DNA from: Planctomycetota bacterium
Lineage (GTDB): Bacteria > Planctomycetota > UBA8742 > UBA2392
DNA length: 64,000 nucleotides
Direction: 5' to 3'
Assembly (NCBI GenBank): GCA_019636195.1
Contig: JAHBYA010000006.1
Location: 61,017-125,016 of the forward strand
Position numbers and translations under genes: made by a program. The first letter of the stretch is position 1, and every line of letters starts with the position of its first letter. The notes under the pieces were generated by a model. It ran no database searches and had not been told where the DNA came from. It saw only the letters and a program-made list of their open reading frames with translations. This document shows positions 8,988-11,096 of the stretch, piece after piece.

Positions 8988-11096
8988 TCACGGAGTCAGT
9001 GGTGCGCCGGCCCACCAATTGGTGCCGGATGGCGGCACGCGCACAGTGTTCGTGCCGCAGTGTGCCTCGCCAACATTGACGTGGTACGCTGACCATATGT
9101 CCACGTACCGCAGGTCCAGCGGGTTGGAGCCGTTGAACAACCCGGCCAGTTGCGAAGCGATGTCGGCCTGCCACTGGTCCTGGCCGCTGATGTCCGGCCC
9201 TTCAGGGTCCGGCATCGCGATATAGGTGGTGCCGTTGGCCGAAGGCAGCGGCACACAGTTCACTACGCCGGGGTTGTACGCGGCCAGGTACCCGCCACTG
9301 CGATTGTGGAACAACGTCGGCAGTTCAATGAAGTCCGCGTCGGTCAGCCCGGTCGCAGCCTTGATCTCGTTGCGCCCCTGGTTGATGCGAGCCTGCGTCT
9401 GGGTTTGAAGCGTGCCCAGCGCGCTGTTGCTGACAATGCTCGCGACAGTGGTCTGGTACCCGGTGCGACCGCTGAACACGACTGCCGAACCCTGGCCGGT
9501 GTTGTTCATGTTGACCAGGATGTTCCATGCCCGCACAGGCGAGGCAATCAGGCACACGTAGCCGCGCGCGGTGTTCGGGGCCGGGACGAACATGGTGTAC
9601 TCATCGACGTGGCCGACCCACAGCCACTCCGACGTGACAGTAACGTGTGCACCCTGGATGTAGTTGGCATCGAAGTACTGGCGGTTGGTGGCTTCCATGT
9701 ACTCAGTGGCGTTCGTCGAGCTGCCGACCAACGTCCCGTTGCCACCGCCAATGTACACACGTCCCCAAGGGCGACCGGTGTGTGGCGGAATCACCTCAAT
9801 GTTGCCGCCGTAGTTCAGCGAAGTGCTGGCGCTTCCGAAGCGGCGCTGCAGCTCAAAGTCCGGCCCCAGCAGGTAATCGACACACCATTGGTCAACCTCG
9901 CGGTTGCGGGCGGCTTGATACACCAGGTCAATCACGCGGCGCGGGCCGCTGCTGCTGGGCGTGATTGTCACGCCGGGTTCGCTGCTGTCCTGGATCCAGC
10001 GGTCCTGGTTGTAACTGGTGCCCGGGATTTCGCGGTAGGTAATGCTGCCGGCCGTGCAGATCTGGCTTAGCACGGTCCGGAAGCTTGCGTTGCTGCTGCC
10101 GAGGTTCACCACATGCAACTGCGACGGCCGCCACAGGTTGGTCGCGAAAATCGGCGGGGCCTGCCGCATGCGCACCGTGTCGCTGGCCTGCACCTGGTTG
10201 CTGCTGTTGCGAATCTCAAGTGTAAATGTGACGTTGCCGTCCCATGTGTTGCTCAGGCGCGTCTTGCCTTCAATGCCAAGCTCAATGTCACCGGCTTGCA
10301 GCGCGGCCGCCGGCAGCGTGAAGCTGGCGCCCGCTGTGTACACGCTTTGCCAGCTGCCGCTGACGTTGCGCCATACGTTGATGCGCCCCTGCGCGCCGGC
10401 GCTTACGTTGATGGTAACCGTGCCGCCGGTCGGTACGCCGGACTGGCGCACAATCATGCGCGCAAGGTCCAGCGCGTCAGCCGCGGTCTTGGTTGCGGAA
10501 AGATAGTCCTCTTGTCCCGCGGTAACCGGGGGCGTCGCAGGCGGCGTGGGACGGTCGTCGTCGTCAATGTTGAAAATGAAGATCGCGCCGCCGTTGCTGC
10601 CCCACTGGTCTTCGTTGGTTTCGTCGGCGGCTGTGATGGTGCCATCGCGATTGGTATCGACGCTCAGGTTCGCAACCACACTGCCCGGCGCGCTGACCGT
10701 GATGTACGCGGTTTTGGACTCGCTGTCGCTGCCCGCGCTGTTGCTGACTGTCAGCGTCACCGTGTAAGTGCCAGCCGACGGATACACGTAAAACGGAAAC
10801 TGGACGGTGCTGTCGACCGTGCCGTCGTTGTTGAAGTCCCATGACCACGAAGTCGGGAAGTTAGTGCTCAGGTCGGAAAAGCTGATCCCCGTGCCAAGAT
10901 TGACTGACGCAGGCGAAGCCGAGAAGTCGGCCACCGGCGCAATCGCTCCGCCGCCGCCGCCGCCGCCGCCGCCGCCGCCGGACGATCCGCCACCCGATGA
11001 ACCGCCGCCACCGCCGCCGCACGCGGCAATCAGCAAGCCAAATGCGCCAGCCATGAACAGATAGCTGAAAGTACGACTGCGTTTGCGTCTGGACAC
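8988..11096 (-). CDS. Lipoprotein with PKD domain fused to a vertebrate-type protein-arginine deiminase (PAD)-like catalytic region
   Basis: Lipobox LIAAC after a basic n-region, then a poly-Gly/Ser linker. PKD domain (WSWDFNNDGTVD ... YTVTLTVSN). PAD motifs DRWIQDS, EWLWVGHVDEYTMFVPAP and GEAHCGTN, with a C-terminal ...NWW tail as in PAD4 ...KWWNMVP. The ORF opens at GTG 11153; the likely start is GTG 11096 or ATG 11054. Confidence 0.8.
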   Translation of the reverse strand: MSRRKRSRTFSYLFMAGAFGLLIAACGGGGGGSSGGGSSGGGGGGGGGGGAIAPVADFSASPASVNLGTGISFSDLSTNFPTSWSWDFNNDGTVDSTVQFPFYVYPSAGTYTVTLTVSNSAGSDSESKTAYITVSAPGSVVANLSVDTNRDGTITAADETNEDQWGSNGGAIFIFNIDDDDRPTPPATPPVTAGQEDYLSATKTAADALDLARMIVRQSGVPTGGTVTINVSAGAQGRINVWRNVSGSWQSVYTAGASFTLPAAALQAGDIELGIEGKTRLSNTWDGNVTFTLEIRNSSNQVQASDTVRMRQAPPIFATNLWRPSQLHVVNLGSSNASFRTVLSQICTAGSITYREIPGTSYNQDRWIQDSSEPGVTITPSSSGPRRVIDLVYQAARNREVDQWCVDYLLGPDFELQRRFGSASTSLNYGGNIEVIPPHTGRPWGRVYIGGGNGTLVGSSTNATEYMEATNRQYFDANYIQGAHVTVTSEWLWVGHVDEYTMFVPAPNTARGYVCLIASPVRAWNILVNMNNTGQGSAVVFSGRTGYQTTVASIVSNSALGTLQTQTQARINQGRNEIKAATGLTDADFIELPTLFHNRSGGYLAAYNPGVVNCVPLPSANGTTYIAMPDPEGPDISGQDQWQADIASQLAGLFNGSNPLDLRYVDIWSAYHVNVGEAHCGTNTVRVPPSGTNWWAGAPLTP

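Follow-up and report, generated by a model that had tools for sequence, protein, structure and literature searches.

A Predicted Lipid-Anchored PADI-Family Deiminase and Its Co-Inherited HEAT-Like Partner: A Probable Two-Gene Operon in Planctomycetota

Organization of the PAD Locus

The window (the whole analyzed stretch of 64,000 nucleotides from a Planctomycetota bacterium) carries a gene for a protein-arginine deiminase (PAD) of the PADI family, with a gene for an exported repeat protein directly downstream (Table 1). The minus-strand ORF of the PAD spans 8988..11153 and comprises 721 amino acids when counted from the first GTG. The 702-residue version starts at the GTG at 11094–11096, preceded by a G-rich stretch, and ends with the TGA at 8988–8990. 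The start assigned by NCBI is the ATG at 11054, 14 codons further in, resulting in a protein of 688 amino acids (P0001) that loses the RRKRSR n-region of the signal peptide and retains the lipobox.

Table 1. Features of the PAD locus, with positions in the window and the basis of each assignment.
Feature	Position	Strand	Basis or details
Intrinsic-terminator-like hairpin	7853..7876	-	Terminator scan and sequence
Partner gene, exported alpha-solenoid of ~356 aa with PBS-HEAT-like repeats	7893..8963	-	ATG at 8961-8963
PAD lipoprotein gene, 702 aa	8988..11096	-	ORF list, sequence, Pfam, PAD4 match
PAD catalytic domain, aa 304-695	9012..10187	-	Full-length PF03068 match
PAD_M-like Ig domain, aa 140-303	10188..10679	-	Alignment to PAD4 residues 113-300
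PKD (Ig-like) domain, aa 53-134	10695..10940	-	PKD_4 E 1.1e-13, PKD E 1.3e-10
Gly/Ser-rich flexible linker, aa 27-50	10947..11018	-	Sequence; mostly a (GGC)n tract
Predicted signal peptide with lipobox, aa 1-26	11019..11096	-	RRKRSR n-region, hydrophobic core, LIAA-C
Intergenic region, presumed promoter region of PAD and partner	11097..11221	.	ORF map

The partner gene begins 24 nt past the stop codon of the PAD gene in the same frame, has an AGGGA element resembling a ribosome binding site before its ATG and encodes a Sec-type signal peptide (MTIRVAILPLLFAPLLAAQ). Its stop codon is followed after 17 nt by a hairpin with a 10-bp stem (8 G-C pairs) and then CTTTTGT, a strong terminator that, lying directly after the partner, closes the pair as a two-gene unit. 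A wider operon including the cyclophilin and AhpC-like genes was rejected because of this terminator and because synteny with these genes is limited to the closest relatives. The intergenic region also borders a divergent gene for a 919-aa lipoprotein; a sigma-70 promoter scan of positions 5400–11400 returned 0 sites. Functional links to the divergent gene and to the ECF sigma genes located upstream in loci L001/L002/L006 were likewise dismissed, as neither is conserved across the clade. PADLOC matches neither PAD nor partner, so nothing ties the pair to any known defence system. NCBIfam holds no family for the PAD (a sub-threshold LapB repeat only), the partner or the 919-aa neighbour.

Domain Architecture and Fold

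The preliminary description had recognized a PAD homologue, and this core reading is supported by profile, sequence and structure comparisons alike. The Pfam PAD profile (PF03068) matches aa 304–695 over positions 3–394 of 395 with an E-value of 2.9e-66 and 224.5 bits (cut-off 25 bits), far above chance. In a phmmer search against PDB sequences, human PAD4 was retrieved with an E-value of 3.8e-44. This alignment covers aa 140–697 and, as it begins at aa 140, also includes the PAD_M-like middle domain, which carries a DxNRDG motif. The expected match to PAD_M itself (PF08527) is not found in the protein at E<=1, though the domain is recognizable from the PAD4 alignment and by Foldseek, and PF08527 is recorded in many homologues. 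PAD_N (PF08526) has no Pfam match in the protein, and a PKD domain occupies its place. The idea that the latter is a diverged PAD_N was abandoned in view of the strong PKD HMM match and a copy number among homologues and orthologues of 0, 1, 2 or 3.

The AlphaFold2 model has an overall pLDDT of 87, with ~95 for the PKD domain and ~30 for the disordered N-terminal aa 1–49. Its best Foldseek matches are human PAD4, PAD3, PAD1 and PAD2 (E 1e-49; TM 0.68–0.76), the PAD4 match spanning ~655–680 columns.

[quoted passage not shown]

All motifs quoted in the preliminary description are present in the translation: DRWIQDS (aa 365–371), EWLWVGHVDEYTMFVPAP (aa 490–507), GEAHCGTN (aa 676–683) and NWW (aa 693–695). 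The catalytic residues D370, H496, D498 and C680 align with Asp350, His471, Asp473 and Cys645 of PAD4, respectively, as had been predicted for the Cys, His and Asp residues. The substrate-binding residues W367, R397 and R399 correspond to Trp347, Arg372 and Arg374. This tetrad and the Trp and Arg equivalents are invariant in the 14 other sequences of the Planctomycetota clade that were tabulated. At the level of sequence, membership in the PADI family with intact catalytic residues is supported, and the protein is predicted to deiminate peptidyl-arginine in a calcium-dependent manner.

Nitrogen scavenging through extracellular deimination of free arginine or small guanidino compounds, rather than of peptide-bound arginine, would rely on catalytic chemistry that is common to the whole guanidino-modifying superfamily, and extracellular ammonia release could help nutrition. 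Nevertheless, we regard such a function as very unlikely: the family match is to PADI, while the families of arginine deiminase, agmatine deiminase and PPAD (PF04371) are all missing from the Pfam matches at E<=1, the residues equivalent to W347, R372 and R374, which in PAD4 grip the backbone and side chain of the peptide, are invariant in the clade, and the two bacterial PF03068 enzymes characterized so far use arginine within peptides or proteins.

Alignment of the calcium ligands to PAD4 bore out sites 1, 3 and 4, but not site 2, the vertebrate "calcium switch". Site 1 retains Q369, E373 and E434. Sites 3 and 4 retain N176, D178, D180, D197, D207 and D210 in the PAD_M-like domain, the counterpart of the Ig-like domain that bears calcium sites 3–5 in the PADI family, while the Ca4 ligand D413 of the catalytic domain is kept as well. 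At site 2, S371, Q394 and A395 replace E351, D369 and S370 of PAD4, and N398 alone (N373 in PAD4) is kept. The Ca2 ligands are missing throughout the Planctomycetota clade; the E, D and S residues are kept in 17/17 cyanobacterial and 4/4 vertebrate sequences.

Export and Predicted Lipid Anchoring

The PAD satisfies the lipobox pattern [LVI][ASTVI][GAS]C with I-A-A-C26, which makes Cys26 the predicted lipidated residue, and a Gly/Ser linker of ~24 residues follows directly. The lipobox, poly-Gly linker and PKD fusion mentioned in the preliminary description are thus all in the sequence, and equivalents occur in almost all close homologues. The lipobox with Gly-rich tail recurs in those with 45–82% identity, and a lipobox is found in most Planctomycetota and Myxococcota PAD loci (0/17 in cyanobacterial loci). 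Lipoprotein export is common among the PADs of these two phyla. The combination of lipobox, poly-Gly linker and PKD domain, together with the family-wide retention of signal and lipobox, argues for a PAD that acts outside the cytoplasm, as was proposed, and Cys26 is presumably lipidated.

A cytoplasmic tailoring or regulatory role comparable to that of the citrulassin PAD, in which the "signal peptide" would be a start-codon artefact, draws on the uncertain start (GTG 11096 versus ATG 11054) and on the actinobacterial PF03068 PAD, whose RiPP target is encoded at a different genomic location. However, the hydrophobic core, the LIAA-C sequence and the 24-residue Gly/Ser tract remain with either start, and the arrangement is kept in the homologues of 45–82% identity and in Myxococcota PADs. 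Moreover, PKD domains typically occur in surface proteins, a signal peptide is present in the partner as well, and inspection of the genes next to the PAD revealed none for a RiPP. We therefore find a cytoplasmic role scarcely credible.

A Co-Inherited Partner Gene

The AF2 model of the partner is an alpha-solenoid (pLDDT 94), and the protein displays both the HEAT_2/HEAT_PBS repeat match and the corresponding fold. Its mature form would comprise about aa 20–356, and its conserved residues include W74, T75, W79, R91, R140 and R178. It adjoins the PAD gene in 6/6 genomic contexts examined via the gene index, and a word search yielded 29 homologues, some of them on contigs equal in length to those of PAD homologues. 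A non-iterated partner HMM detected 36 loci, and its match in each was solely the ORF that immediately follows the PAD gene, with 0 off-target matches in ~1 Mb of loci. The iterated HMM raised the number of adjacent matches to 51 and additionally picked up HEAT_2 proteins other than the partner in L001/L002 and L003. Because it drifts to generic HEAT_2, the claim for distant loci leans on the non-iterated HMM and on position. The centre of the partner consists of generic PBS-HEAT repeats, and assignment of the remotest "partners" (13–24% identity) therefore depends on position and profile score. The pairing occurs in every close Planctomycetota locus for which downstream sequence is available and in most Myxococcota loci, among them L073 and L076 with Myxococcus or Polyangium homologues; a HEAT partner was found at 0/17 cyanobacterial and at none of the actinobacterial PAD loci. 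Position, strand and a spacing of 0–60 nt persist in Planctomycetota, Myxococcota and Bradymonadales while the other neighbours change. The pairwise identities of PADs and partners correlate with r = 0.91 over 44 pairs, a mirror-tree correlation that is expected of any linked genes.

The preliminary description had overlooked this conserved downstream gene, the feature from which most can be learned about the PAD locus.

One may object that the PAD is exported and active and that the HEAT-like gene is a mere syntenic neighbour, i.e., a generic periplasmic repeat protein. The central repeats are indeed of the generic PBS-HEAT/alphaRep kind, a profile search of 1.84 billion representatives mainly returned long multi-HEAT proteins that match only partner positions ~150–275, and the gene contexts of bacterial PF03068 proteins have been described as "highly diverse" (Harris et al. 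2020). Yet relatives that match the partner over its full length in a single stretch are few (roughly 40 among the best 150 of that search), the non-iterated HMM has no off-target matches, the arrangement stays constant across phyla despite changing neighbours, and the pair has its own terminator. On balance, we consider mere neighbourhood unlikely, and adjacency and co-inheritance suggest a functional or physical partnership between PAD and partner.

Phylogeny and Distribution

In a neighbour-joining tree of corrected p-distances (fungal sequences not included), the PAD falls in a Planctomycetota-specific clade (43–100% identity) that is monophyletic in 100/100 bootstraps. One subset of Myxococcota PADs is its sister group (80% bootstrap), and the split uniting cyanobacteria and vertebrates leaves out the PAD in 100/100 bootstraps. 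The earlier label "vertebrate-type" is consequently correct at the family level but not at the level of the clade, since the protein lies outside cyanobacteria and vertebrates and lacks both PAD_N and the Ca2 ligands.

Animal PADs are thought to derive from cyanobacteria by horizontal gene transfer, hence PAD genes are mobile, and phylogeny had been put forward as a check for horizontal acquisition. A recent acquisition from an animal or cyanobacterial PAD, or contamination with one, nonetheless has a negligible probability here and is effectively refuted: the Planctomycetota clade is deep and separate from cyanobacteria and vertebrates, the identity to vertebrate PADs is just 28–30%, G+C is 0.63–0.65 in the gene region and flanks alike, and synteny around the locus is kept in related MAGs.

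The notion that such enzymes are rare in bacteria turned out to be overstated. A GTDB scan confirmed at least 571 PAD species loci, and Harris et al. 2020 (bioRxiv 10.1101/2020.07.16.207027) tallied 837 bacterial PF03068 proteins.

Comparison with Known Deiminases

The protein is a variant of a known enzyme family with a new partner gene. With vertebrate PADI1-4, it has in common the catalytic and PAD_M domains, the tetrad, the Trp and Arg residues, calcium sites 1, 3 and 4, and the Ig-Ig-catalytic three-module layout. It differs in its low identity, in the PKD domain that replaces PAD_N and in the substitutions E351S, D369Q and S370A at the Ca2 "switch". Furthermore, vertebrate PADs are cytosolic or nuclear, whereas the PAD studied here is predicted to be exported and lipid-anchored and has a downstream partner gene. 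The cyanobacterial three-domain PADI, which has been demonstrated to be active (Cummings et al. 2021, PMC8826395), is equally a bacterial PF03068 protein with PAD_M and PAD_C and a conserved active site. In contrast, it possesses PAD_N and Ca2, groups with vertebrates, and lacks both a signal peptide or lipobox and a HEAT partner (each 0/17).

The PADIs of Myxococcota/"Deltaproteobacteria" resemble the PAD in being mostly lipoproteins, in lacking the Ca2 ligands and in having the same HEAT-like gene directly downstream. They constitute the "two-domain" bacterial type of Cummings et al. (PMC8826395) and form part of the 837 bacterial sequences counted by Harris et al. 2020. Identity is 30–36%, however, and their N-terminal modules are others, PKD being characteristic of the Planctomycetota clade. 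In the literature searched, no experimental characterization of a Myxococcota PADI was found.

The citrulassin PAD of Streptomyces, for which peptidyl-arginine deiminase activity was proven in vivo (Harris et al. 2020, 10.1101/2020.07.16.207027), is another bacterial PF03068 enzyme whose substrate is encoded away from the enzyme gene, but it is a cytoplasmic enzyme with a RiPP as its target, and no conserved partner has been reported for it. Finally, PPAD of Porphyromonas gingivalis (PF04371) is a functional analogue, i.e., an exported bacterial citrullinating enzyme acting on extracellular proteins and peptides. It nevertheless belongs to another family with undetectable sequence relationship to the PAD and no PAD_M, is calcium-independent and is secreted by the type IX system.

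Literature searches for citrullination with Myxococcus and lipoprotein, for a Myxococcus xanthus protein-arginine deiminase, and for PAD with HEAT repeat and operon returned nothing relevant. Export and PF03068 are both absent from a 2024 microbiota paper, Cummings et al. 2021 (PMC8826395) and its supplements do not mention Planctomycetes, signal peptides or PKD, and the export, the lipid anchor with its flexible stalk, the Ca2 loss and the repeat-protein partner go unmentioned in the 2020 and 2021 surveys of bacterial PADs.

Proposed Mechanism and Significance

We consider it probable that the locus is a two-gene operon for an exported, lipid-anchored PADI deiminase and a co-inherited exported HEAT-like solenoid. 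The PAD would be exported by the Sec route and lipidated on Cys26, after which it would hang from a membrane via the Gly/Ser linker and the PKD domain as a spacer in the PAD_N position. Asp370 and Asp498 would hold the arginine while Cys680 attacks the guanidinium carbon of the peptide-bound residue and His496 serves as acid/base, releasing ammonia and leaving citrulline. With the Ca2 site missing, Ca1, Ca3 and Ca4 intact and a calcium-rich extracytoplasmic space, the enzyme is probably constantly calcium-loaded and active instead of being turned on and off by transient calcium signals. Alternatively, the missing Ca2 site could mean an altered calcium dependence rather than constitutive activity. 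The partner, presumably Sec-exported as an alpha-solenoid and inherited with the PAD across phyla, most likely binds the PAD or its substrate as a targeting, stabilizing or restraining subunit. The substrates would be extracytoplasmic or foreign proteins or peptides.

A more far-reaching and tentative proposal is that lipoprotein PAD and HEAT-like partner together constitute a system dedicated to extracytoplasmic citrullination and older than the divergence of its Planctomycetota and Myxococcota versions, in which the solenoid docks on the PAD and the targets are envelope or foreign proteins and peptides. The docked solenoid might select targets or keep the PAD inactive until it reaches its destination; arginine-rich antimicrobial peptides and prey proteins are conceivable examples of such targets. 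The pairing is present in lineages labelled Myxococcota and Bradymonadales, both of which include predators. If true, the system would represent a second, independently evolved route of extracellular bacterial citrullination beside PPAD.

Citrullination has been studied almost wholly as an intracellular, calcium-switched modification of animals, and the P. gingivalis enzyme, from a different protein family, is the one well-known extracellular case in bacteria. Judged by their genes, Planctomycetota and Myxococcota appear to harbour a large branch of true PADIs built for export and for lipid anchoring by way of a flexible stalk, in which the calcium-switch site has been lost and along with which a dedicated exported repeat protein seems to travel. 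If PAD and partner work together, the pair would offer a concrete, testable way into the function of bacterial citrullination, and the PAD a natural "always-on" PADI scaffold for enzymology. On a practical note, an identical protein is present in NCBI nr (P0001) as "PKD domain-containing protein [Planctomycetes bacterium]", and "PKD domain-containing protein" is the sole NCBI name of this enzyme, which makes for a practical annotation issue.

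Domain Architecture of the Deiminase

From the start given in the preliminary description, a GTG at 11096 that follows a G-rich stretch, the deiminase gene (PAD) encodes 702 amino acids. Its translation contains the motifs by which the preliminary description had recognized a protein-arginine deiminase: DRWIQDS (residues 365-371), EWLWVGHVDEYTMFVPAP (490-507), GEAHCGTN (676-683) and NWW (693-695). Pfam profile PF03068 is matched completely (profile positions 3-394 out of 395; E = 2.9e-66; 224.5 bits at a cut-off of 25 bits). The claimed lipobox and poly-Gly linker are present within residues 1-50, and the PKD fusion is borne out by Pfam (E = 1.1e-13), this domain taking the place of PAD_N. 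The best matches among PDB sequences are human PAD4, PAD1, PAD2 and PAD3 (E = 4e-44 to 7e-39), and as this alignment spans residues 140-697, a PAD_M-type middle domain is included. In an AlphaFold2 model (42 sequences; mean pLDDT 87.4), residues 1-49 are disordered and PKD, PAD_M and PAD_C are confident. Foldseek against the PDB ranks human PAD4 first (E = 1.2e-49; TM 0.68/0.75; around 655-680 aligned columns); the next matches are PAD3, PAD1 and PAD2.

Public databases already contain this protein under an uninformative name, and its enzyme family is known. The identical entry, P0001 (688 amino acids, from a later ATG), is called just 'MAG: PKD domain-containing protein [Planctomycetes bacterium]' because NCBIfam has no model for this protein.

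The long (GGC)n tract encodes a poly-Gly linker that differs by one Gly from the nearest homologue, so that it may change in length by slippage. A Pro/Thr-rich insertion, RPTPPATPPVTAGQ, occupies the loop that separates calcium ligand D180 from D197, where model confidence is low (pLDDT 63-76), and is missing from the 82%-identical P0002 and the remaining clade.

Features of the deiminase locus and its surroundings in the window
Feature	Window position	Strand	Residues	Details
Beta-helix proteins	2455-5591	+		two in tandem
Cyclophilin-type isomerase	6961-7815	-		
Hairpin	7853-7876			10-bp, G+C-rich, then T-run; 17 nt after partner stop
Partner gene	7893-8963	-		ATG 24 nt after PAD TGA, same frame; AGGGA element before ATG
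PAD ORF	8988-11153	-		from ORF list
Signal			1-26	basic n-region RRKRSR, hydrophobic core, lipobox LIAA-C
Gly/Ser tract	10947-11018		27-50	encoded by (GGC)n run
PKD domain			53-134	
PAD_M-like domain			140-303	
Pro/Thr-rich insertion	10515-10556		181-194	
PAD catalytic domain			304-695	
919-aa lipoprotein gene	11222-13981	+		divergent from PAD
Na+/Ca2+ exchanger family gene	16008-16982	+		5 kb from PAD
NOX/ferric-reductase-like protein	25418-26740	+		

Active Site and Calcium Ligands

PAD4 residues 113-661 were rebuilt from the PDB-sequence alignment and aligned with 85 PAD sequences. The catalytic residues align (PAD4 D350, H471, D473 and C645 correspond to D370, H496, D498 and C680), as do the substrate-binding W347, R372 and R374 (W367, R397 and R399); all are invariant across the Planctomycetota clade. 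The ligands of Ca1 (PAD4 Q349, E353, E411) and of Ca3/Ca4 (N153, D155, D157, D165, D176, D179, D388) are kept, and PAD_M begins with a DxNRDG motif. Those of Ca2 are replaced (E351 by S, D369 by Q, S370 by A). This loss extends to the whole Planctomycetota clade and the Myxococcota-type PADs; the E, D and S ligands are retained in 17/17 cyanobacterial and 4/4 vertebrate sequences. Judged by these residues, the protein should be catalytically competent and bind calcium without a vertebrate-type Ca2 site.

Relatives and Phylogenetic Position

Word-indexed searches yielded about 70 close homologues (43-100% identity). Those with names are Planctomycetes MAG proteins, many called 'protein-arginine deiminase' by JGI; Myxococcota, Actinomycetota and vertebrate PADs show at most 37% identity. 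All close homologues start with a lipoprotein signal and a Gly-rich linker, followed by zero to three PKD copies. The family had been called rare in bacteria, which is overstated: when one genome from each GTDB species was scanned for the pattern WLxVGH[VI]DE, at least 571 loci were confirmed by tblastn. The nearest ten among the matches listed are all Planctomycetota MAGs (45-58% identity).

Neighbour-joining of 85 sequences places the protein inside a monophyletic Planctomycetota clade (100/100 bootstraps), which joins a set of Myxococcota/'Deltaproteobacteria' PADs (80/100). Cyanobacteria and vertebrates form a separate clade (100/100), so that the label "vertebrate-type" applies at the level of the PADI family and not at that of the clade. 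Most PADs of Planctomycetota and Myxococcota have a lipobox, against 0/17 cyanobacterial ones. As regards horizontal acquisition, the placement in a Planctomycetota clade, together with a G+C content matching that of the surroundings, identifies this as a long-resident bacterial gene.

The PADs of L059, L063, L085 and P0177, from Actinomycetota MAGs and a Methanophagales archaeon bin, join the cyanobacterial and vertebrate side (100/100) and retain E351, D369 and S370, unlike the actinobacterial type of Cummings et al. 2021 (PMC8826395). The archaeal assignment may be a binning error.

A Two-Gene Unit with an Exported Solenoid

The partner gene encodes a predicted Sec-type signal peptide. Downstream of it, the hairpin is the stronger of just two terminator-like sites in 6 kb. 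The 24-nt spacing on the same strand, the AGGGA element, the signal peptide and the closing hairpin together define a bicistronic unit. In all six gene-index contexts (L001, L003-L007), a same-strand gene of 334-363 amino acids without Pfam match or with weak HEAT matches lies downstream of PAD; all other neighbours vary. Word searches gave 29 partner homologues, many on contigs identical in size to those of PAD homologues.

A partner HMM from the close family was run on six-frame ORFs of 87 PAD loci and the window. Without iteration, it matched exclusively the ORF directly downstream of PAD, with zero off-target matches, in 17 close loci and 19 Myxococcota, 'Deltaproteobacteria' or other loci. 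After iteration, adjacent matches numbered 51, with none adjoining cyanobacterial, actinobacterial, Lysobacter, Reyranellaceae, Paenibacillus or Methanophagales PADs. In L001/L002 and L003 the iterated profile also matches HEAT_2 proteins other than the partner, so that in the most distant loci the assignment rests on position and score. The pair is co-inherited across phyla, and PAD and partner pairwise identities correlate (r = 0.91 over 44 pairs). The extra HEAT_2 proteins, a few genes from the pair (L001, 11749-12795; L003, 17242-18052; E around 1e-36), may be paralogues or generic HEAT proteins.

The partner model is all helical (pLDDT 94), and alphaRep profile matches are restricted to positions ~150-253. 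Relatives that match over the full length in a single stretch (~350 amino acids) are few among 1.84 billion cluster representatives, making up about 40 of the best 150. The others are long multi-HEAT proteins matching the central repeats alone, which indicates that the N- and C-terminal thirds are family-specific.

Comparison with Known Systems and Proposed Mechanism

Bacterial PF03068 enzymes are well established. Harris et al. 2020 (bioRxiv 10.1101/2020.07.16.207027) compile 837 of them, show that a Streptomyces member produces the citrulline of the lasso peptide citrulassin and call the genomic contexts 'highly diverse'; Planctomycetes are not among the phyla quoted there. Cummings et al. 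2021 (PMC8826395) report PAD in 295 species of cyanobacteria, actinobacteria and proteobacteria, prove a cyanobacterial enzyme active, and set three-domain PADs (cyanobacteria and animals), to which Ca2 and Ca4 are confined, apart from two-domain types. Their text and supplementary sequence sets contain no Planctomycetes. Unlike their non-cyanobacterial type, the present protein keeps Ca4 ligand D388 (D413). Neither Cummings et al. nor Harris et al. mention a signal peptide, a lipoprotein, a fusion to PKD or a neighbouring gene that is conserved, and further full-text literature searches added nothing on these features. P. gingivalis PPAD is a functional analogue for extracellular citrullination but of an unrelated family, PF04371, which has no Pfam match in our protein. 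The preliminary finding was correct and its interpretation largely holds; a putatively exported and lipid-anchored, Ca2-less PAD branch with an obligate HEAT-like partner gene appears to be undescribed.

We propose that the enzyme would be exported by Sec, lipidated at Cys26 and tethered to a membrane, with linker and PKD stalk holding the catalytic domain out. Outside the cytoplasm, calcium loading would be constitutive, and Cys680 would deiminate peptide-bound arginine, freeing ammonia. The solenoid may bind the enzyme or its substrate. As substrates, envelope proteins of the organism itself are candidates, and so are proteins and peptides of foreign origin.

Neighbouring Genes

The 919-aa lipoprotein combines a CAGGGG lipobox and Gly linker with a He_PIG Ig domain, and weakly resembles the catalytic domains of GH51 alpha-L-arabinofuranosidases (E = 7e-5). 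Its gene is equally placed in L003, L004/L008 and L011 at 71-79% identity, and is therefore better conserved than PAD; it is missing from more distant PAD loci. The exchanger gene (Pfam Na_Ca_ex, E = 2e-66) is syntenic in L017 (67% identity), and its proximity to a presumably calcium-dependent enzyme may be plain synteny. The cyclophilin-type peptidyl-prolyl isomerase, with an unassigned N-terminal extension of ~140 amino acids, lies just beyond the terminator, and also follows the pair in L004/L008 (86%) and L017 (64%).

In some Planctomycetota relatives, namely L001 (5936-7807), L002 (738-2609) and L006 (5908-7892), an ECF-type sigma factor gene and an unassigned ~430-aa gene, possibly for an anti-sigma factor, precede the pair on the same strand, a hint that regulation there may be of the envelope-stress type; this arrangement is absent from the window. 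Farther away, the NOX/ferric-reductase-like protein combines Ferric_reduct, FAD_binding_8 and NAD_binding_1 in the way most familiar from eukaryotic NADPH oxidases, and the right-handed beta-helix (Beta_helix/NosD-like) proteins (538 and 507 amino acids) have overlapping stop and start codons.
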